Source: Candidatus Omnitrophota bacterium
GTDB lineage: Bacteria > Omnitrophota > Gorgyraeia > JABMQH01
Reading direction: 5' to 3'
Assembly: GCA_028715645.1 (NCBI GenBank)
Contig: JAQURK010000002.1
Coordinates: forward strand, 756 to 64,755
Length of the DNA: 64,000 nt
Positions 5,220 through 46,865 of the stretch are shown one piece after another. The position numbers and the translations under genes are program-made. The notes under the pieces are model-generated. The model saw only the letters and a list, made by a program, of their open reading frames with translations. It ran no database searches and was not told the origin of the DNA. Position 1 is the stretch's first letter, and the number at the start of each line of letters is the position of its first letter.

Positions 5220-7037
5220 TTAGTCTAATTCAAACTCCTTTCTCCAATCGGTCTCTTCTTGAACATACCTCTGCTTGTGTTTATCCAAAAGAAAGCTCCC
5301 CATCACCAGGTAATCCATGTTTGTACGCATGAAGCAGCGGTAGGCCTCTTCCGGTCGGCAGACTATCGGTTCTCCTCTTACATTGAAGGAGGTGTTAATT
5401 ATCACCGGACAGCCGGTCTTTTCGTAAAATTTTTTTATGAGCGCATAATATACGGGGTGCTCCGTTTCTTTTATTGTCTGGATTCTGGCGGAGTAATCCA
5501 CATGAGTTACCGCCGGTATCTCTGAGCGAGCTACATTCAATTTGTCTATCCCGAACAGACTCTCCTGTTCCCCGGTAATCGCTATTCGCTTTTCTTTGCG
5601 CACGGGGCTTACCAAAAGCATATAAGGGCTGTCCTGTTCCATCTCAAAGTATTCGGAGACGCTTTCGCTCAAGACCGTCGGCGCAAATGGTCTGAACGAC
5701 TCCCTGAACTTTATCTTAAGATTCATAACGGACTGCATCTTTATTGAACGGGCGTCGCCGATGATGCTCCTTGCGCCAAGCGCCCTTGGGCCAAACTCCA
5801 TCCTTCCCGAAAACCAGCCGATGACCTTTTCCTGGCTTATTAGTCCGGCGACGGTTTCCAGAAGGGCATCCCTGTCTAATTTATTATGCGGTATAGACCT
5901 CTCCTTTAAAAAGGCTTCTATCTCTTGATCGGTGAAACTGGGGCCCAGGAGAGAGGCTTTCTGTGAATCAGTCACGCCATTTGACTTCCTTTCGTTGCCA
6001 AGATACTGATACCAGATAAAAAGGGCTGTTCCTAACGCCCCGCCCGCGTCCCCTGCCGCAGGTTGTATCCAGATATTCTTAAAGGGTCCGTCTTTTAAAA
6101 TCCGGCCGTTTCCGACGCAATTTAACGCGACCCCGCCGGCCAGGCACAGATTGTCTTTTCCCGTTTTCTTATGGACGCGCCTTGCCGACCTGAGCATAAT
6201 CTCCTCGGTAACAACCTGTATTGACCTCGCCAAATCCATGTCTTTCTGCGTAATTTTTGATTCGGGTCTTCGCGGAGGGCCGCCAAATAATTTGTCAAAC
6301 CGTCGATTCGTCATCGTGAGCCCGACCGCGTAATTAAAATATTTCATATTCATTTTAAAAGAGCCATCTTCCTTTAAATCCAGGAGTTCACTTAAAATCA
6401 TATCCACATATCTGGGCTTCCCATAAGGAGCGAGCCCCATTACCTTGTATTCCGCGGAATTCACCTTGAATCCCGTATAGTAGGTAAAGGCGGAATATAA
6501 AAGCCCCAGTGAATGCGGAAATCTCTGCTCTTCCAGTAATTCAATTCTGTTTCCGTCTCCCACACCAAAACTTGAAGTATCCCATTCACCCACAGCGTCC
6601 ATTGTCAATATCGCCGCGTCCTGAAACGGGGACGGGAAAAACGCCGATGCGGCATGGGATTCATGATGCTCTGGAAAAATAAGCTTACCCTTGTAATTCA
6701 ATTCATTACTGATGAAATCTGACATCCAGAGCCTCTGCTTAATCCAGATAGGCATGGCCTTCATAAAAGAGCGGATACCCCACGGGCTGTTTGCCAGATA
6801 CGTAAAAAGTATTCTCTCAAATTTTATAAAAGGCTTCTCATAAAAACCTATGAAGTCAACATCGCCTATGCCGATCCCACCTTCTTTCAGGCAATAGGCA
6901 ATCGCATTTTTAGGAAAATTGGCGTCGTGTTTTTTTCTTGTAAACCTTTCTTCCTGGGCGGCGGCCACTATCTCGCCGTCCTTCACAAGGCAGGCGGCCG
7001 AATCATGATAAAAACAGGATATCCCCAGAATATTCAT
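5220..7037 (-). CDS. Carbamoyltransferase (NodU/CmcH/SxtI family)
   Basis: 605 aa. The N-terminus MNILGISCFYHDSAACLV...PEHHESHAASAF is the Kae1/YgjD-like carbamoyltransferase domain, and a C-terminal YrdC-like domain follows. Confidence 0.85.
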   Translation of the reverse strand: MNILGISCFYHDSAACLVKDGEIVAAAQEERFTRKKHDANFPKNAIAYCLKEGGIGIGDVDFIGFYEKPFIKFERILFTYLANSPWGIRSFMKAMPIWIKQRLWMSDFISNELNYKGKLIFPEHHESHAASAFFPSPFQDAAILTMDAVGEWDTSSFGVGDGNRIELLEEQRFPHSLGLLYSAFTYYTGFKVNSAEYKVMGLAPYGKPRYVDMILSELLDLKEDGSFKMNMKYFNYAVGLTMTNRRFDKLFGGPPRRPESKITQKDMDLARSIQVVTEEIMLRSARRVHKKTGKDNLCLAGGVALNCVGNGRILKDGPFKNIWIQPAAGDAGGALGTALFIWYQYLGNERKSNGVTDSQKASLLGPSFTDQEIEAFLKERSIPHNKLDRDALLETVAGLISQEKVIGWFSGRMEFGPRALGARSIIGDARSIKMQSVMNLKIKFRESFRPFAPTVLSESVSEYFEMEQDSPYMLLVSPVRKEKRIAITGEQESLFGIDKLNVARSEIPAVTHVDYSARIQTIKETEHPVYYALIKKFYEKTGCPVIINTSFNVRGEPIVCRPEEAYRCFMRTNMDYLVMGSFLLDKHKQRYVQEETDWRKEFELD

Positions 7038-15990: not shown

Positions 15991-16952
15991 TTACCCTTTA
16001 GTCGCACAAGTACAGCGGCGCCGATCAAGCCCGCATCCTGACCTAGTTTTGCCTTCACAATCTTCGCGCAATCTGCCGGCAACCTCATGGCCCTTTGCTT
16101 GACGGTCTTTCTTATCGCTTCAAATAAAATCTTACCCGCATCCGCAATTCCGCCTCCGACAATAATCCTTTCAGGATTTAATAAATTTATCACGCCTGCT
16201 ACGGTTACGCCCAGATGACCGCCTATCTCTTCCCAGACTGAGGCGGCAAGCCTGTCGCCTTTTTTTTCGGCCATTGAAATAATCTCCGGCGTTATCTTTT
16301 TAAGGTCGCCGTTGACAAGGCCTGTAACGGCGGTTTTTTTACCTTCCTTTATTTTTCTGATAGCGACCTCAACTATGTACTTATTACCTACATATTTTTC
16401 CATACAGCCAAAACCGCCGCAGTTACAATTTGGACCTTTTTCATTTAAGGGCATATGGCCTATCTCACCGGCCGAAAGGGTGCTGCCTCTGTACAGCCTG
16501 CCATCAATGACAATGCCGCCGCCAACGCCGGTGCCAAGGGTAATGCATACCATGTTCTTCGCCCCTCGCCCTGCTCCGTGATGAAGTTCTCCGAGAGTCA
16601 TCACATTCACATCATTGTCAATAAAAACACTCATGCCGGTGGTTTTTTCAACAAGGTCTTTGAGCGGGACTTCTTTAAAACCTTTTATGTTAACGAGTTG
16701 ATGTATGATCCCCCTTTTTGAGTCAATAAGGCCCGGCGCCCCTATTCCTATGCCGAGTATATCCTGTTTCCTGAGACCGGCTTCTTTCATAATTTCAAGG
16801 CAGGCATTAGACAGGGCGCTTATCAGCGATGTCTTGCCTTTGTAGGCCCTTGTTGAAAGGTTGGACTTCTTCACTATCCTGTTCTCATCCTTAACAAGAG
16901 CGATTTTTATATTGGTCCCTCCCAGATCCGCCGCAATGACATATCTTTTCAT
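15987..16952 (-). CDS. ROK-family sugar kinase (glucokinase/N-acetylglucosamine kinase-like)
   Basis: ADLGGTNIKIALV N-terminal ATP motif, CxCGxxGC zinc motif, 321 aa. Confidence 0.8.
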   Translation of the reverse strand: MKRYVIAADLGGTNIKIALVKDENRIVKKSNLSTRAYKGKTSLISALSNACLEIMKEAGLRKQDILGIGIGAPGLIDSKRGIIHQLVNIKGFKEVPLKDLVEKTTGMSVFIDNDVNVMTLGELHHGAGRGAKNMVCITLGTGVGGGIVIDGRLYRGSTLSAGEIGHMPLNEKGPNCNCGGFGCMEKYVGNKYIVEVAIRKIKEGKKTAVTGLVNGDLKKITPEIISMAEKKGDRLAASVWEEIGGHLGVTVAGVINLLNPERIIVGGGIADAGKILFEAIRKTVKQRAMRLPADCAKIVKAKLGQDAGLIGAAVLVRLKGK

Positions 16953-17650
16953 GTTTCTACCCTGTTTCTCCCTTTTGTCTTTGCCCTGTACAGCGCCTCA
17001 TCCGCCATTTTTATAAAGTTCTCTTTCGTAAAATCAGTACTAAAGCCGTCAAAAAAACCGGCGCCCACGCTGAGCGTAACCTTCCTGTCGCCTCTGACTT
17101 TCATCTCTTCCGCCTTTTTCCTCAACCTTTCCGCCAGGGCAAGGGCATTTTCCTTTTTTATCTCCGGCATGATCACCGCAAACTCCTCGCCGCCGTACCT
17201 TGCGATGATATCGATCTTCCTGCAGGAGACCTTGAACATCCTTGCCAGTTCTATGAGGATGGCATCGCCCGCCTGATGGCCGAAACTGTCATTATAATTT
17301 TTAAAACGGTCAATATCAAGCATAAGTAATGAAAGCGGCCTGAGGTATCTTTTTGACCGCTCTATCTCCTCTCCAAGCCTCCTCATCAGATACTTGTGAT
17401 CGTAAAGGCCGGTGAGACTGTCCGTTATGGAAAGAAAATTGCTTATCTGCTTTTCAATCGCCTTATTGAACCGCGCCAGTATCGACAAGACAATCACGAT
17501 CGCCGCGCCCGAGGCGCAGGAAGCGGTAAGATAATCAAGGGAAAAAAGCTTCTGCGCGGCCTTCGTGGCTAAACTTTGCGATAAAAGGACAGCGCCCATA
17601 AAAAAAGCCATTAAAAAAATGAATTTTTTCATGCCTATGCTTACTGCCAT
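16949..17650 (-). CDS. Membrane-anchored GGDEF diguanylate cyclase
   Basis: Two N-terminal TM helices. The GGDEF domain has an intact RYGGEEF active site. Confidence 0.85.
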   Translation of the reverse strand: MAVSIGMKKFIFLMAFFMGAVLLSQSLATKAAQKLFSLDYLTASCASGAAIVIVLSILARFNKAIEKQISNFLSITDSLTGLYDHKYLMRRLGEEIERSKRYLRPLSLLMLDIDRFKNYNDSFGHQAGDAILIELARMFKVSCRKIDIIARYGGEEFAVIMPEIKKENALALAERLRKKAEEMKVRGDRKVTLSVGAGFFDGFSTDFTKENFIKMADEALYRAKTKGRNRVET

Positions 17651-18708
17651 CGCCCCTCCCCCGAAAACTGGATAACCTTGTTCCTGCCCATTGTCTTTGC
17701 CGCGTACAAGGCCTTATCCGCGGATTCCATTAACTCGGCAATTGTCTTCGCGTTATCCGGAAAAGTTGAAACCCCTATGCTTATCGTTATCTTAAGGGAC
17801 TCATTATAGATCATGAAATTCTGCCTGGCAACGGCCTCTCTCAGCCTCTCCGCCGCAAGCACCGCGCCGGCCTTATCCGTTTCAGGCAGGAGTATGGAAA
17901 ATTCTTCGCCTCCATACCTGCCGATGAGGTCTATCTCTCGAATGTTTTGTTTCAATACCCTTGCGACCTCTTTTAAGACCATATCGCCGAAAAGGTGGCC
18001 AAACCTGTCATTGCAGTCCTTGAAATGATCAAGGTCGACCATAAGATATGAAAGCCTGAACTTGCTTTTAAAGGAACGCTCAAATTCTTCCGCAAGCATT
18101 CCGATGAAATACCTCCTCACAAAGATGCCTGTTACCCCGTCGGTTATAGCGAGCTCCTGGATCTCTTTGTAAAGCCGCGCCTTATCTATCTGGAGGCTAA
18201 ACTGCCTGGCCACTATCAGGAATTTATCGACCGCTACCTCCTCCAGCCCTTCCACATCCACCGCGCCGATCGCCTGATTTCTGCTTTTAAGAGGAACGCG
18301 AAAATCCGCGGCGCTCATGCCTCCGCCCGCATTCTTTACCTCATAGACCTTTTCCTGAGCTTTCGTCCCGCTGCCGGAAAGAGACAGCCTGCAGGTCCGG
18401 AACCTGAAGTTCTTTTTTATGAATTCGCTGAATATCCTGAAGATATCCTCAAATAAAAGGGCTTGAGACATATTTTTTGTTATTTCATAAAGTCCTGATA
18501 TCTCGGAGATCCTTTCCTCAAGGGCCTTGTGGCGCGCAATAAGACCTTTGTTTTTTTCCTCAAGGTTTCGCAGTATTTTTTCAGAATCCGCTACTTCCTC
18601 CGTAAAAGACCTCTTTCTGTCAATGAGCGCTTTACCCAACACGACAAATACCACGGGGGCTGCGCAATACGCCGCAAGCGCGGGAACAATCAGATAGAAC
18701 CCGGCCAT
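17641..18708 (-). CDS. GGDEF diguanylate cyclase with N-terminal TM helix, coiled coil and GAF-like sensor region
   Basis: 355 aa with RYGGEEF motif. Overlaps its neighbours by a few nt, which suggests operon organisation. Confidence 0.85.
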   Translation of the reverse strand: MAGFYLIVPALAAYCAAPVVFVVLGKALIDRKRSFTEEVADSEKILRNLEEKNKGLIARHKALEERISEISGLYEITKNMSQALLFEDIFRIFSEFIKKNFRFRTCRLSLSGSGTKAQEKVYEVKNAGGGMSAADFRVPLKSRNQAIGAVDVEGLEEVAVDKFLIVARQFSLQIDKARLYKEIQELAITDGVTGIFVRRYFIGMLAEEFERSFKSKFRLSYLMVDLDHFKDCNDRFGHLFGDMVLKEVARVLKQNIREIDLIGRYGGEEFSILLPETDKAGAVLAAERLREAVARQNFMIYNESLKITISIGVSTFPDNAKTIAELMESADKALYAAKTMGRNKVIQFSGEGRWQ

Positions 18709-20138
18709 GTCCTGTTCCTGCCTGATTCTTTTGCCTTATATAAATTGCTATCGGCGGTTTTTAACAGCTTCTCAGCGGTAGTCCCGTCTTCCGGGAAAGA
18801 AGATATTCCTATGGAAACCGTCAGTTTTACCTCGTCCCTTCTTAGCGTAAAAAGTGTTTTTTCAAGCCCCTTTCTTATATCCTCGGAAATCTTCATTGCG
18901 GCTTTTTTATCTGCCTTGGGAAGGATCATGGCGAATTCTTCGCCGCCGTATCTCGCGATAACATGGCCTTCGCCGGCCAGGGCCCTAATGGCCTGGGCGA
19001 GTTTTATGAGCAGCAGGTCGCCTGCGGCATGGCCGTATTTATCATTATAACCCTTGAAATAATCTACATCTATCATGGCAACCGAAAATCTGCCGGCTTG
19101 CGCCCCCGCATTTCCTACCTTCAGCTCGAGCGCCTCCTTAAAATATCTCTGCACATAAAAACCGGTAAGGCCATCGGTGATCGCGAGCTCGTTTGTCCTT
19201 TCGTAAAGCATGGAGTTTTCGATGGAAACGGCGGCAAGGTCAGAAATGATATCAAGGAGCCTAAGATCGTCCTGGGTATAGGCGCCCTTCGCCATGGAAT
19301 CCATCCTGAGCACGCCCATTACCTTTTTCTCGCTCATTAACGGAACGCCTATGATGGATTTATATTGCCGGTCCGCGGGATCGGCAAGGGCCTCAATGGA
19401 AAACCTGAAATCGTTATCGAGGTCCTGTATTATAAGCGATTTCCTGTGTTTTAATATCCAGCTGTCGAAAGTCGTCAACCTTTGCTGTTTTTGGCCGCTT
19501 AAAAATAAAAACACCCTGTCTGAGCCTATGATCTTAAACGCCTTTGAGGTCACAAGTTTTATCGTCTCATCCAGGTTAAGGGTAGAGCTCAGCGCCTCTG
19601 TTATGTCTTTAAGCGCGGCGTACCCTTTAAACCTTTTTTCCGCGAACTCCATATCCTTTTCTTTTTTTGAGATCTTGAGGGCAAGGCTGTTTTCCTCAAC
19701 TTCCAGGACCTCAAGCATCGCAAGCGAACGGTTTCTGAAGGCGTTTAAACGCGAAAGGATTTTATATCCGGCAAAAGCGGCAATGCAGAATAAAGGAACA
19801 TAGATATTGTAGTCAAAAACGCCGTATCGAAGGAGGGTCATAAGAACAAAAAAACAGGAAAAAATAAGGATAAGCACGCCGCCTAACTGCCCCAGACAGA
19901 GCCAACTTATTAAATTGAGAGGGATAAACAAGGAGAGGTAAAGGACTATTACATTTCTATACTCCGCGGAAGACACCCTTAACCCCGGTGAAATGGCGCT
20001 CAACAGGCAATATACGATAATAAAAACAACTACTGTGCCTGTACCGGTAAAAAATATGGTCTTGGACGATTTTCTGTTATACAATTGTCCTGCCGGTATC
20101 TTTATCAAAAAAGTGGGCCTTTGACATGTCAAAAACAA
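18690..20138 (-). CDS. Polytopic membrane GAF-GGDEF diguanylate cyclase
   Basis: 482 aa with a multi-TM N-terminus, a GAF-like middle region, and RYGGEEF. The annotated 5' end overlaps the upstream gene by 62 nt, so the true start may be an internal Met. Confidence 0.8.
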   Translation of the reverse strand: MFLTCQRPTFLIKIPAGQLYNRKSSKTIFFTGTGTVVVFIIVYCLLSAISPGLRVSSAEYRNVIVLYLSLFIPLNLISWLCLGQLGGVLILIFSCFFVLMTLLRYGVFDYNIYVPLFCIAAFAGYKILSRLNAFRNRSLAMLEVLEVEENSLALKISKKEKDMEFAEKRFKGYAALKDITEALSSTLNLDETIKLVTSKAFKIIGSDRVFLFLSGQKQQRLTTFDSWILKHRKSLIIQDLDNDFRFSIEALADPADRQYKSIIGVPLMSEKKVMGVLRMDSMAKGAYTQDDLRLLDIISDLAAVSIENSMLYERTNELAITDGLTGFYVQRYFKEALELKVGNAGAQAGRFSVAMIDVDYFKGYNDKYGHAAGDLLLIKLAQAIRALAGEGHVIARYGGEEFAMILPKADKKAAMKISEDIRKGLEKTLFTLRRDEVKLTVSIGISSFPEDGTTAEKLLKTADSNLYKAKESGRNRTWPGSI

Positions 20139-23635: not shown

Positions 23636-26600
23636 TTACTGTGTCGTTCCAAATGCTGTATTTGAGTATTTTGACTTCTCATTCCCTCTATATGCACACA
23701 CCCTATAATAATATGTTTTTCCCGAAGCAAGTCCTCCGGCCGTATATGTTGTTTTATTAGCGGTTACATAACCTTTATATGCGAATGTTACCCCATCCAT
23801 GCTTTGCTCTATCCTGAATCCTGTCTCATCAGCAGAATCATCCTGCCAGGTAAGTCTTATCTGGGTCGAGGACAATGCCTGGGCTATTAGGTTGGAGGGG
23901 GCTGCCGGAAGAACGGTCTTCAGTACCGTAGTGCCATATTGAGAGGCGCTGTCTCCTGTGGGCCCTGTCCCTGTCAAGATATAGGTATATGTCCCATCCG
24001 GCAAAAGGACGCCGGAGACATTCCTCCCATTCCACTTCACAGCAAGATTTGCCCCGAGGCCGGAGAAGGAGCGCACCGTTTGGTCAGCGGCATCTTTTAT
24101 CTCAATTGTCCAGACAACAGATTGATTAAACTTACCGCTTATCATTGTCGTTTCATTCACCCCGTCGCCATTAGGACTAAAAGGATCTGGAGTATCGCGC
24201 AATGAAAGGATGGAAACGGAATTAGGCATTACGGTAACTTTTGCCGTATCAATCACCGGCCCGTTACCTGCCGCGTCATCAACAGATAAGGCCACTATAT
24301 AATCTCTTACCTGTATAAAGGTAAAAGTGGGGTTTACGCCCCGGGCGTCTGCCTGAAAGCCCTGATGCGGATCATAGTCAAAATCCCAGAGATATGAAAC
24401 AGCGCCGACATTATCGCTTGAACCGGAGCCGTCGAAACTTACCGCTGTGTTTAACTTTACTGTTTTATCCTCTCCTGCGTTGGCTACAGGCGGTGTGGTA
24501 TCAGGCGGCATGTGCGTTTCCCCTCCGGGCACCCAGATCGTCAATCTATTGATCATAGTGGCGGCATCATGGCCTGGTGTGCCGTAACCCAATCTTACAT
24601 CAAGACGGCCGTCGGTTACCTTTACCTTTGCCGGCCAGACCCATAAGGTATTGGCTGGATCGTTGGGTTTTAGCGCATCAAGGATTATTTCGTTTGGAGT
24701 TCCGGGTTCAAGAACGATGTGGGTATCCCCGAAGAAAGTAAGCGGAGACGTATTCCCTGAAGCCCTCCCCCTTCCAACAGTGATATTGACATCATATTCG
24801 CCGTTAGGAAGATCCGTGGACCATGTGTTTAGAGTGTTATTCGCCACATAGCAGAATGAATTATCGGCGTCCAGATATGCGTTGTTGTAATTATAGTCAT
24901 AATTATAGTAATAATTAACATTAGCATTTGACCAGCCGTTACGTATCTTGGCATCATACAGCCCTAATGATACCCTTGTTCCTTGAGGAAGACAGACAAG
25001 CGGGCCAAAGTCAAATTCTCCTACAAGTTCACCCGCGTCTGACAGCGCAGGTGTCGTGAATGAGTATTCATCGCTTATCGCCTCCTCGCCCTCGCGCCAG
25101 CTCTTTACGCGGTAGTAATATGTAGTATTGGGTTTGAGGCAGTTTAGGGCCAACCTGTGTGAGGATTTGAATACCTGATTTTGGTCGCCCCTCATATCTA
25201 TATAAGGATATCTCCCTGCGGTGGTCCCGAATTCTATTTGTCCTCTGGTAGCGAGGGCGTTATTTTGGCTGTCTTTAGAGTCCCATGTTATGACTGCCCT
25301 CTCGGATGTAAGCTCCGCGACGCTTACATCCGAGATGAATGGCGTATTAAGCGTTGTATCGTTTTTATCTATGATATATTTATCGCGTAAGTTTCTGCTT
25401 GCCCTGCGCGCGGTGTATGTCCCGCTTTCCTGGTATCCGTATGTCTCAACCGTGCATTTTTTATCTTCTACGGTCATCTCAATATAGCTCACCTTGCCAT
25501 CCCCTGGCGGTGTATTGTAAAGAGAGTTATGCGCTATCCCAAGGCCGTCAACTCCGGATTGGCAAAGATGATATATCGTTCCTTTGCAATTGGCGTTATA
25601 ATATCCTGCATCCTGCGAACAGATGATGCCCCATTGTTTGGGGTCAATGGGGTTTCTGATTAATGGGTATGTCCTTTCATGTATATGCCAATGGCCCGAA
25701 AATTGAATGTCTACATCATACGTATCATAAAGACGCATTGTCTCTAAATCTGTATGGGATAATTTTAATTGCGTATTTACCAACGACCTCTTAGTTGTGC
25801 CACCGTCTCCGTATACAGGACCATGCCGGCCTGTAAATATATAGTTTATGTCCCTTGCCCTCGCCTGGATGAGGTCCTGCTCTCCCCATGCATTGTAGGT
25901 TAAGGATAAACCCCATTCCCCATAAGAAACAAAATGCGCTTTGCCGTAGTCGAAACTGAAGATAACCTCTTTTTTATCATCCGGGCCGTTCTCAGGGAAA
26001 TAATTGAATTCTCTATACCTCGCCAACCCAGCTCCGCTGCCTTCCGTACTATCGCAGTCCCTCTCGTGGCCGCCTGTTATATGAACATAAACGGCTGTGG
26101 CGTAAAGCTCGCGGAACATAAAGAACATATCCGTATAATTAGTTAAAGTACCGGAGGCGACTATATCACCCTGCAGGAATATAACATCCGGATCAAACTT
26201 TAGCATATCCGGCAACATGGAGGAAAGCGATAAAACCGCCTGAGGTTTTATACTATGGAAGTCGGCTCCCACCAATACCTTAAACCTTCCATCAGGAGGC
26301 GATGTCTTAAACTCATAGACAGGCGAGGTATCGTTATCACCTTCCACATAGTAGCGGTATGTCGTTCCCGGCTCAAGGTCGGTGAGTTTAATGAAGTGTT
26401 TGGTGTCAATATCTGGAAGTATGATTGAATATTCATTCTCGTCTGATATTCCATAATGTATGACCGCTGAAGAAGGATTGGCGGTCCTGAAAGCGACACC
26501 GATGGCTGCGCGTAATCTTTCGGTACCGTCACTATAGAGGAGCTCCCCTGTGTTGATATCGGGGTCAGCCCCTCCTGTCGGCTGTAGATACGGCCCAACA

Positions 26601-26941
26601 GTGATACCTGAGCCATCGTCGGGGATAAAAGACACCCCGATATTTTTGTTTGAATCCATCGTGATGTATATGGGATTATACCTGTCTTGGCCTTGCGGTA
26701 TATCCCCCGACCATCTATCAAAAACATTCTTGCTCACGTAATCACCGGAAGCGATTAACCTTACTACCGTCCCTGCGGGATAGTCTTGGCCGGATGGGCT
26801 GGCCACATATTGGCCATTGCCCTGTGTGCTCACAGTTAGGGTATAGGTGCCTTCGACAAAGCCTATACTCATCGGTATTGCAAAGAAGACAATGCTAAGT
26901 ACTATAATAGAGGATATTTTAATTACCTTATATTTCTTCAT
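23636..26941 (-). CDS. Large secreted multi-domain metallophosphoesterase (purple-acid-phosphatase-like calcineurin-type domain with FN3, PKD and FlgD Ig-like domains)
   Basis: 1101 aa. Signal peptide; PAP N-terminal FN3-like domain; metallophosphoesterase motifs (GDxxASG...GHWH); PKD-like segment (VSFDGSGSSD...); FlgD Ig-like motif (DPFSPNGDGVNE); C-terminal FN3 domain. Confidence 0.75.
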   Translation of the reverse strand: MKKYKVIKISSIIVLSIVFFAIPMSIGFVEGTYTLTVSTQGNGQYVASPSGQDYPAGTVVRLIASGDYVSKNVFDRWSGDIPQGQDRYNPIYITMDSNKNIGVSFIPDDGSGITVGPYLQPTGGADPDINTGELLYSDGTERLRAAIGVAFRTANPSSAVIHYGISDENEYSIILPDIDTKHFIKLTDLEPGTTYRYYVEGDNDTSPVYEFKTSPPDGRFKVLVGADFHSIKPQAVLSLSSMLPDMLKFDPDVIFLQGDIVASGTLTNYTDMFFMFRELYATAVYVHITGGHERDCDSTEGSGAGLARYREFNYFPENGPDDKKEVIFSFDYGKAHFVSYGEWGLSLTYNAWGEQDLIQARARDINYIFTGRHGPVYGDGGTTKRSLVNTQLKLSHTDLETMRLYDTYDVDIQFSGHWHIHERTYPLIRNPIDPKQWGIICSQDAGYYNANCKGTIYHLCQSGVDGLGIAHNSLYNTPPGDGKVSYIEMTVEDKKCTVETYGYQESGTYTARRASRNLRDKYIIDKNDTTLNTPFISDVSVAELTSERAVITWDSKDSQNNALATRGQIEFGTTAGRYPYIDMRGDQNQVFKSSHRLALNCLKPNTTYYYRVKSWREGEEAISDEYSFTTPALSDAGELVGEFDFGPLVCLPQGTRVSLGLYDAKIRNGWSNANVNYYYNYDYNYNNAYLDADNSFCYVANNTLNTWSTDLPNGEYDVNITVGRGRASGNTSPLTFFGDTHIVLEPGTPNEIILDALKPNDPANTLWVWPAKVKVTDGRLDVRLGYGTPGHDAATMINRLTIWVPGGETHMPPDTTPPVANAGEDKTVKLNTAVSFDGSGSSDNVGAVSYLWDFDYDPHQGFQADARGVNPTFTFIQVRDYIVALSVDDAAGNGPVIDTAKVTVMPNSVSILSLRDTPDPFSPNGDGVNETTMISGKFNQSVVWTIEIKDAADQTVRSFSGLGANLAVKWNGRNVSGVLLPDGTYTYILTGTGPTGDSASQYGTTVLKTVLPAAPSNLIAQALSSTQIRLTWQDDSADETGFRIEQSMDGVTFAYKGYVTANKTTYTAGGLASGKTYYYRVCAYRGNEKSKYSNTAFGTTQ

Positions 26942-27231
26942 TTGATTACCTCCGTTTTTTTCCTGCTTTTACTACCCTGAAAAATCGCCTTCCTGGCTAT
27001 TTCTTCAAATATCTTATTCATCAACTCCTCTTTGGAATGGATGTTTTCGCCGGTGACGCCCTTTTTCATACAAGCCTCTACCATCGCTTCTATAATCTTT
27101 GCCTTTGGCAGTTTTGTCCCTGTAGTAAATAAGGAATCCTTGCTGAGCTTATCTATATAATCCAACTCCTCCCTTGTAAGAAAGGTTATGACCCTTGACA
27201 GTAATTCTTTTTTTTCATGTTGAGTGCTCAT
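26938..27231 (-). CDS. Small protein with N-terminal ribbon-helix-helix-like fold (putative DNA-binding protein)
   Basis: 97 aa. The 'LLSRVITFLTREELDYIDKL' segment fits a beta-strand/helix RHH pattern. ATGA overlaps at both ends indicate translational coupling. Confidence 0.45.
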   Translation of the reverse strand: MSTQHEKKELLSRVITFLTREELDYIDKLSKDSLFTTGTKLPKAKIIEAMVEACMKKGVTGENIHSKEELMNKIFEEIARKAIFQGSKSRKKTEVIK

Positions 27232-27422
27232 TTTTGTTCACCTCGATAATAATCCTCAAGTTTTCTCTGTATATTCTCCCTCTCAGCCGGCGTCAATATC
27301 TGTTTTACCACATAGGAATAAACATCTTCGGCTGTCATCACAGGAAGCTTATACTTATTACCGTTGGCGCATGAGAATTCCTTCAATTCCACCTTGCATT
27401 TCCTTACTATATAGATATCCAT
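27228..27422 (-). CDS. Small hypothetical protein (64 aa from the ATG; the ORF track extends it to a TTG start at 27440)
   Basis: The ATG is preceded by AAGGAGG at 5-nt spacing. First gene downstream of the riboswitch-like leader. Confidence 0.5.
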   Translation of the reverse strand: MDIYIVRKCKVELKEFSCANGNKYKLPVMTAEDVYSYVVKQILTPAERENIQRKLEDYYRGEQK

Positions 27423-27446
27423 AGCAACCTCCTTGGGCAATAAAAA

Positions 27447-27476
27447 AACCTTACTCCATTGGGAATAAGGTTTTTT
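27447..27476 (-). terminator. Intrinsic terminator hairpin (9-bp stem CCUUAUUCC/GGAGUAAGG, CAAU loop, U7 tract). Doubles as the candidate riboswitch expression platform and terminates proS.
   Basis: Seen directly. The hairpin is flanked by A6-7 on one side and T7 on the other, so it is bidirectional. It lies about 10 nt upstream of the SD of the small ORF. Confidence 0.6.
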
Positions 27477-27482
27477 ATCACT

Positions 27483-27573
27483 GTCTTCGGCAACCCTGCC
27501 GCCCTATCCCGGTTACGGAACTTAGGCCGTGGCTTTCCGCCCCCCGCTTTCGCGAGGTTAGGCTTGTTCGTAC
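27483..27573 (-). ncRNA. c-di-GMP-I (GEMM) riboswitch-like aptamer
   Basis: The minus-strand RNA is ...ACGAACAAGCCUAACCUCGCGAAAGCGGGGGGCGGAAAGCCACGGCCUAAGUUCCGUAACCGGGAUAGGGCGGCAGGGUUGCCGAAG. It has a GAAA-tetraloop P2, the GCGGAAAGCCACGGCC segment (compare GEMM ACGCAAAGCCnCGG), and a 3' GGCAGGGUUGCCGA segment (compare AGCnGGGUURCCGA). Overall similarity to the V. cholerae Vc2 aptamer. Confidence 0.6.
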
Positions 27574-27630
27574 AGCATACCAAGGTATTTAAAGAGCGAG
27601 CTGACTTTCTATTATTTTACTTGCACTATA

Positions 27631-27659
27631 AGTATACCTGACAAATGTCATTTTGTCAA
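27631..27659 (-). promoter_or_regulatory. Sigma70-like promoter for the riboswitch/small-protein/giant-protein operon (TTGACA, 17-nt spacer, TATACT)
   Basis: Read on the minus strand: attgacaaaatgacatttgtcaggtatact. Overlapped by TGACA-N2-TGTCA and TGTCA-N4-TGACA palindromes. Confidence 0.5.
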
Positions 27660-27678
27660 TAGTGACAAAGTAAAATAA

Positions 27679-46783: not shown

Positions 46784-46865
46784 TGCGGAAGGAGAGATTT
46801 GAACTCTCAAGGGTTGCCCCATACGGTCCTGAGCCGTACGCGTATGCCAGTTCCGCCACTTCCGC
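46784..46865 (-). tRNA. tRNA-Leu (anticodon CAG)
   Basis: Cloverleaf folds cleanly. 7-bp acceptor stem GCGGAAG/CUUCCGC; D-loop with GG; anticodon stem UACGG/CCGUA with loop CUCAGGA; long variable arm GGGG-CAA-CCCU; T-loop UUCAAAU. No encoded CCA. Confidence 0.9.

Follow-up and report, generated by a model that had tools for sequence, protein, structure and literature searches.

What does the leader on the minus strand around positions 27440-27660 of this 64,000-nucleotide stretch of Candidatus Omnitrophota DNA (contig JAQURK010000002.1; hereafter the window) sense, and does its signal open or close the three-gene operon that follows it? The first-pass annotation had taken it for a GEMM riboswitch leader, a sensor of cyclic di-GMP (c-di-GMP), and this overall interpretation is correct; the class is already well known, so that the intrinsic novelty of the element is low. 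The Rfam covariance model RF01051 (c-di-GMP-I), with which it had been proposed to search 27440-27660, places an aptamer at 27573-27486 (minus strand) with 64.0 bits, well above the gathering score of 35 (E 3.3e-10); the match covers the full length of the model (positions 1-87 of 87) and is the sole aptamer of this family in the window. Our own covariance model, R1, gives 92.7 bits over 27578-27480. The hallmarks named by the annotation, a GAAA-capped P2 and the conserved segments GCGGAAAGCC and GGCAGGGUUGCCGA, are all present in the aptamer on the minus strand, where they had been placed. P1 pairs CG (27570-27569) with CG (27489-27488), and P1a CC (27562-27561) with GG (27538-27537); P2 reads CCUCGC-GAAA-GCGGGG (27557-27542), with the GAAA loop at 27551-27548, and P3 spans 27528-27501. 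The tetraloop on P2 is of the GNRA type, which makes this a type I c-di-GMP-I element; of its putative receptor on P3, the 5' half is an exact CCUAAG, and the 3' half reads AUAGG against uAuGa in the Rfam consensus.

Whether this fold is maintained by selection can be read from related loci, of which 30 were fetched with the family of the operon's 97-residue protein as bait, from genomes and metagenomes (all Omnitrophota-type metagenome-assembled genomes, Omnitrophota being a phylum of the PVC group), and eight more with the family of its 64-residue protein; single loci are denoted here by L numbers. In 26 of the 30 loci of the 97-residue family, Rfam models find an aptamer of the c-di-GMP-I clan that lies on the same strand as the gene and precedes it by 100-450 nucleotides, and our own model, built from ten of these aptamers, finds 37, including those of L013 and of every locus of the 64-residue family. 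The three loci without a match (L002, L025, L028) each have less than 300 nucleotides of upstream sequence; wherever there is enough upstream DNA, the aptamer precedes the gene of the 97-residue family. In the alignment of the 37 aptamers, standard pairs occupy 95.1% of the cells of P1, P1a, P2 and P3, both partners have changed in 19 of the 24 pairs, and none of 500 shuffles reaches the observed values; with the 3' partners slid as a control, pairing falls to 25-49% (maximum 48.7%). Fitting of the alignment to the model favors the structure, yet the margin is large even so, and covariation supports all four helices, P2 and P3 among them, in the homologous loci.

The bases that contact the ligand in the Vc2 aptamer of Vibrio are G20, A47 and C92 (PMC5888326, PMC11218506); their equivalents here are G 27563, A 27536 and C 27490, and they are kept as G, A and C in 36, 37 and 37 of the 37 aligned aptamers. 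The window has P1, P1a, P2, P3, these three bases, the GAAA loop and the CCUAAG receptor half in common with Vc2 and type I of RF01051, and differs from them in the 3' half of the receptor (AUAGG, not UAUGG), in its host, an omnitrophote, and in P1a, where the window's clade has C-G instead of G-C; this swap is found in 12 of the 34 distinct sequences and is compensatory. The aptamer lies in the 5' untranslated region, on the same strand as the genes, with a conserved promoter upstream and a terminator and Shine-Dalgarno sequence downstream. Judged by sequence and covariation, the element is thus a canonical type-I c-di-GMP-I riboswitch, an ordinary member of the known class, and we infer that its aptamer binds c-di-GMP.

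The promoter is the sigma70-like one that had been claimed: TTGACA (27654..27659, minus strand) and TATACT (27631..27636, minus strand), 17 nucleotides apart, match in 11 of 12 positions. A scan for promoters is not above chance (5 sites, as against 3.6 +/- 1.7 in shuffles); among the aligned relatives, TATACT is invariant in 12 of 12 members of the clade and TTGAC is kept in 11 of 12, and conservation continues through the spacer and the flanks (GTCACTCTTGACAAATTGACATTTGTATGCTATACTTATAGTGA). Transcription would start at about 27624, leaving a 5' leader (27574..27624, minus strand) ahead of the aptamer, which can pair with the 3' side of the aptamer in thermodynamic folds. This leader contains a motif, GAAAG.(C/T)AG, conserved in the window and its relatives about 25 nucleotides after the -10 hexamer; in most of the distant loci, GCUCUUU(U)AA occurs 15-25 nucleotides before the aptamer and can pair with the tail that follows it, GAAUAGAG.

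The -35 hexamer and the spacer are overlapped by a palindrome, TGACAAA-N6-TTTGTCA (27639..27658, both strands), flanked by an outer inverted repeat, CACTAT/ATAGTG (27624-27629 and 27659-27664), and an equivalent palindrome, ACAAAT-TGAC-ATTTGT, is kept in relatives. Six of these (L017, L020, L032-L035) have a second exact copy of TTGACAAWTTGR about 60 nucleotides downstream, directly 5' of the aptamer, and none elsewhere in the locus; the window has the promoter copy only. The palindromes and the copies of TTGACAAWTTGR look like operators for a protein, so that a protein may regulate the operon in addition to the riboswitch. The TTGACA-like motif beside the aptamer in the relatives was also considered as a second promoter and rejected: there is no acceptable -10 hexamer at 16-18 nucleotides, and transcription from this motif would truncate the aptamer.

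Downstream, the intrinsic terminator (27442..27470, minus strand) is confirmed with the 9-bp stem and U7 tract that had been described: its 5' arm CCUUAUUCC (27470-27462) is joined by the loop CAAU (27461-27458) to the 3' arm GGAGUAAGG (27457-27449), followed by U7 (27448-27442). Its core has a computed energy of -10.5 kcal/mol, which becomes -17.3 kcal/mol when the flanking A/U pairs are included; the terminator begins 15 nucleotides after the aptamer and ends 7 nucleotides before the Shine-Dalgarno sequence. A consensus terminator scanner missed it, probably because the extension of the stem by the A-tract and U-tract uses up the T run; reading and folding of the sequence show it clearly. 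The annotation had further proposed that the 3' strand of P3 competes for the terminator 5' arm, and the complementarity is indeed there: nowhere in the aptamer and spacer does CCUUAUUCC have a better duplex partner than GGGAUAGGG (27502..27510, minus strand), the P3 3' strand, which contains the 3' half of the tetraloop receptor. This duplex has nine pairs and -11.1 kcal/mol, and only 3 of 300 dinucleotide shuffles equal it. In a transcript that ends before the 3' arm of the terminator, the antiterminator fold is preferred (-43.2 kcal/mol, as against -32.7 kcal/mol for the consensus aptamer fold), which speaks for the proposal. Locally, the P3 hairpin (-10.4 kcal/mol) and the antiterminator are near isoenergetic, as would be expected of a strand whose pairing is decided by ligand-dependent tertiary docking.

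These observations, the promoter, the aptamer, the terminator and the complementarity, can be joined into a mechanism. The sigma70-type promoter would start a leader of about 185 nucleotides, with the type-I aptamer followed 15 nucleotides on by the terminator. At low c-di-GMP, GGGAUAGGG would leave the aptamer and pair with CCUUAUUCC, no terminator would form, and RNA polymerase would read into the operon; at high c-di-GMP, ligand bound at the junction (G20, A47, C92) and docking of the P2 tetraloop into the P3 receptor would hold the P3 strand, the terminator would form and transcription would stop. We regard this explanation as a whole, from promoter and aptamer through P3-strand antitermination and OFF switching to the three-gene operon, as reasonably probable. 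Its direction, a transcriptional OFF switch, we favor with modest confidence; because the P3-strand antiterminator is only partly conserved, the direction is one that we infer. The class-I c-di-GMP riboswitches of Clostridioides difficile are transcriptional OFF switches as well (PMC11477304).

Several points weigh against this mechanism. In the minimum-energy fold of the full-length leader, the upper part of P3 stays paired and the terminator is present all the same, alongside an aptamer in a non-native fold, so that thermodynamic folding alone does not predict switching. This fold relies on a pairing between leader and aptamer that is specific to the window; the idea that it is an alternative structure kept by conservation was rejected, as the relatives lack a complementary leader. 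Of the 11 closest relatives, only four or five show more complementarity between terminator arm and aptamer than expected by chance (significant in L020, L035 and L032, marginal in L033 and L034, not above chance in L003, L018 and L038), and in several loci the preferred partner of the arm shifts from GGGAUAGGG to the neighboring GGCAGGGU; the idea of attenuation by the P3 strand stands for the window, and the pairing is only partly conserved in its closest relatives. Moreover, secreted or adhesin-like cargo is elsewhere often induced by c-di-GMP, not repressed. Finally, Bc1 of Bacillus thuringiensis, a GEMM-I element with terminators, is unresponsive to c-di-GMP in vivo (PMC11218506).

What speaks for termination upon binding is mainly the geometry across relatives. 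Of 24 distant related loci, 22 have a terminator after the aptamer, as do all 12 members of the window's clade, among which the arms show compensatory differences (arm position 3, for instance, has U-A in the window in place of C-G). In the window and its relatives, the spacer between aptamer and terminator measures 9-23 nucleotides and the terminator never overlaps the aptamer, which fits an OFF rather than an ON geometry, with an aptamer strand that would double as antiterminator. In distant clades, it is the loop and 3' strand of P2 to which the terminator 5' arm is complementary, most extensively in L006 (17 contiguous pairs, -27.6 kcal/mol, z -7.3) and also in L014 (z -4.5), L012 (-4.6), L030 (-4.9), L008 (-3.2) and L004 (-3.0); these pairings covary, being CUUGAAAG/CUUUCAAG in one locus and CCUGAAAG/UUUUCAGG in another. 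The same six loci carry a third GAAAG-RRUAG-like copy after the aptamer. Pairing and third copy together resemble a three-way design of competing pairings that would act through an internal aptamer helix, not through P1. In L024 and L027, finally, the arm is complementary to the 3' strand of P1, including C92. Strands of P1, P2 or P3 would thus be three solutions to one logic in different clades, and that three different strands appear to serve one purpose is the main argument that c-di-GMP binding favors termination. The relatives also offer a natural series of platforms for studying how switching sequences evolve.

The same evidence bears on the opposite direction, in which bound c-di-GMP would keep the terminator from forming, so that the small proteins and the secreted enzyme would be induced in sessile cells with much c-di-GMP. 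High c-di-GMP typically leads to the output of large, multidomain secreted proteins, the full-length fold, in which the terminator coexists with a non-native aptamer, can be read as the ligand-free state, and some GEMM-I elements are ON switches, Bc1 being cited as up-regulating a reporter (PMC11218506). An ON switch is nonetheless unlikely, if not negligibly so: the terminator shares no nucleotides with P1 or any other aptamer strand, and the spacer GACAGUGAUAAAAAA is complementary to neither terminator arm, so that there is no antiterminator that the ligand could release, while the arms in the relatives are complementary to aptamer-internal strands, in the OFF geometry. It could also be that the aptamer binds c-di-GMP and the terminator is largely constitutive, with regulation exerted by a protein at the palindromic promoter and leader, as by Zur in Bc1. 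The conservation of the promoter far beyond its hexamers, with the palindromes, the second TTGACAAWTTGR that at least six relatives have immediately 5' of the aptamer, the RHH-like (ribbon-helix-helix-like) protein encoded in the operon and the weak conservation of the antiterminator in the clade would all fit this arrangement, for which Bc1 provides a precedent (PMC11218506). We nevertheless give it only a small chance, for the aptamer and its ligand-contact bases are strictly kept before the family in every locus with enough sequence, which argues for selection on ligand sensing, and several relatives show very strong complementarity between the aptamer and the terminator arm.

The aptamer might instead sense a different ligand, either 3'3'-cyclic GMP-AMP (3'3'-cGAMP), as in the GEMM-Ib class, or the unknown ligand of the GGC variant. 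In the competition between the models of the Rfam clan, RF03167 (c-di-GMP-I-GGC) scores best for nine relatives (L004, L005, L007, L014, L015, L021-L023 and L026), which is what speaks for such a ligand. The consensus of RF03167 has G at the position equivalent to A47 (ACGCGAA), however, and all 37 aptamers, those labelled RF03167 included, have A; as G at this position occurs neither in the window nor in any relative, the labels are uninformative on specificity and were rejected as evidence for its alteration. They are a by-product of model competition, RF03167 including a shorter P3 and P1. For cGAMP-selective riboswitches (GEMM-Ib), Kellenberger 2015 and Nelson 2015 are said to describe an A in place of G20; the window has G at 27563, and G20 is kept in 36 of the 37. 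The c-AMP-GMP (GEMM-Ib) class itself exists (PMC7266159). With A47 and C92 in all 37 aptamers and no A20 of the cGAMP-selective kind, sensing of another cyclic dinucleotide is very improbable.

c-di-GMP-I is among the most common riboswitch classes, and the Omnitrophota are mostly uncultured, ultra-small bacteria; in the literature searched, no published description of c-di-GMP riboswitches in Omnitrophota was found, so that the window provides a canonical example in a phylum for which that literature describes no c-di-GMP sensing. Among its nearest counterparts are the class-I switches of C. difficile, located for example upstream of flgB, of ppep-1/CD2830 and of several small hypothetical proteins; in these, too, an intrinsic terminator comes after the aptamer, and their targets are secreted enzymes, adhesins and small open reading frames (PMC11477304). 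Cargo types and architecture match those of the window and its relatives; here, the strand that is proposed to switch lies within the aptamer itself (the P3 3' strand, or P2 in relatives). Bc1 likewise is a type-I GEMM element with intrinsic termination and a possible protein layer (PMC11218506), which is Zur in Bc1 and would be a factor at the palindromes here; Bc1 has two terminators and a platform of 220 nucleotides, whereas the window has one terminator, 15 nucleotides after the aptamer. Of added value is the strict, phylum-wide coupling of the riboswitch to an unannotated RHH-like family, which also occurs fused to PilZ.

The genes that follow differ in emphasis from what had been expected. 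The annotation saw as the target an 1101-residue surface protein; its gene (23636..26941, minus strand) is the third of the operon, and those immediately controlled are the reading frames of 64 and 97 residues, both annotated as hypothetical (PHO42_00715, PHO42_00720). The first (27228..27434 with its ribosome-binding site, minus strand) has the Shine-Dalgarno sequence AAGGAGG at 27434-27428, its ATG at 27422 and its stop at 27228; the second (26938..27231, minus strand), putatively of the ribbon-helix-helix fold, starts within the stop of the first, and the third within the stop of the second, by ATGA overlaps at 27231/27228 and 26941/26938 that define a three-gene operon. No convincing minus-strand terminator was found after the third gene. 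For the 64-residue protein, 11 metagenomic homologs were found apart from the copy in the window, with 23 invariant residues; it belongs to no known family in searches of Pfam, NCBIfam and PDB sequences. The 1101-residue protein has a signal peptide and the domains Pur_ac_phosph_N, Metallophos, PKD, FlgD_ig and fn3, which mark it by sequence as a secreted purple-acid-phosphatase/metallophosphoesterase, and not as a demonstrated surface anchor or adhesin.

No full-length homolog of this large protein occurs in any related locus. L034 (1354-3501) is syntenic with the window, with the same FAD-oxidase, AccD, ABC-ATPase and GAF-GGDEF neighbors, and keeps the aptamer, the terminator and a 62-residue gene, without the large secreted gene and without a recognizable gene of the 97-residue family; the large cargo thus has the look of a recent acquisition that can be dispensed with. 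In L035 and L036, too, the 64-residue gene occurs without the 97-residue one. Elsewhere, the gene after the small protein codes for some other large secreted enzyme or for a diguanylate cyclase, among them an S8 subtilase, a GH9 protein with PKD and fn3, Big_9/cadherin, PKD with CarboxypepD_reg, and HAMP-GAF-GGDEF. The last of these follows the RHH-like gene in L010, L011 and L013 (reading frames starting at about 6220-6240) and, if the riboswitch is an OFF switch, would place c-di-GMP synthesis under negative feedback. In two loci, a second c-di-GMP-I aptamer stands before the next gene (L009, 7508-7655; L026, 6457-6556), which in L026 encodes a 1417-residue GH9/PKD/fn3 protein.

The 97-residue protein has no sequence match in Pfam, NCBIfam or PDB, and no member of its family matches a curated RHH model of Pfam or NCBIfam. 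A profile search of 1.84 billion representatives yields 240 clusters at E<=1e-3. Among the 147 members scanned, a PilZ domain is fused to the C terminus of 24 (about 16%) and a receiver domain to the N terminus of one, with no domain other than these two; the fused PilZ domains have the RRxxxR and (D/N)xSxxG motifs that are canonical for c-di-GMP binding. In L040 (3742-4789), a c-di-GMP-I aptamer (65.6 bits) also stands before such an RHH-PilZ gene, and an overlapping gene for a 789-residue dockerin protein comes after it. An AlphaFold model from 147 sequences (predicted local distance difference test, pLDDT, 80.8) has an extended segment at 11-19, helices at 20-37 and 43-57 and an extra C-terminal helix; it finds no match with Foldseek. 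It supersedes a first model from 25 sequences, which was all-helical at pLDDT 64 and gave meaningless Foldseek matches. With hhalign, RVITFLTREELDYIDKL aligns to strand and helix A of both CopG and NikR, at negligible probability. Going by the predicted fold, the protein is probably RHH-like and DNA-binding. CdbA of Myxococcus xanthus is an RHH DNA-binding c-di-GMP receptor; the 97-residue protein has no detectable sequence similarity to CdbA or to the Pfam RHH models, and whereas CdbA binds c-di-GMP directly, the link here is made by the riboswitch and, in 24 of the 147 relatives, by the fused PilZ domain.

The PilZ and receiver fusions corroborate the link to c-di-GMP independently of the aptamers, and the unannotated family of about 240 clusters can be seen as a part of the c-di-GMP regulon that is marked by the riboswitch. 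Tentatively, and with more doubt than confidence, we suggest that the family comprises new RHH output modules for c-di-GMP signaling, in which stand-alone copies are gated by the riboswitch, RHH-PilZ copies sense directly and one copy is the output domain of a response regulator; the window's copy would bind the palindromes in the promoter of its own operon and co-regulate the secreted proteins encoded after it, which are variable and very large. If true, the c-di-GMP circuit of these uncultured bacteria would have two tiers, first an RNA sensor and below it a transcription factor. As a candidate family of c-di-GMP-responsive transcription factors, it is a more useful lead than the riboswitch itself.

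Around the operon, the three nearby GGDEF genes that had been noted are present, 7.3-10.5 kb downstream on the same strand; they are consecutive with overlapping ends (16949-17650, 17641-18708 and 18690-20138, minus strand), and the last encodes a GAF-GGDEF protein. The upstream neighbor is prolyl-tRNA synthetase, and the only other Rfam match in the window is an 82-nucleotide tRNA-Leu(CAG) at 46784-46865 (minus strand).

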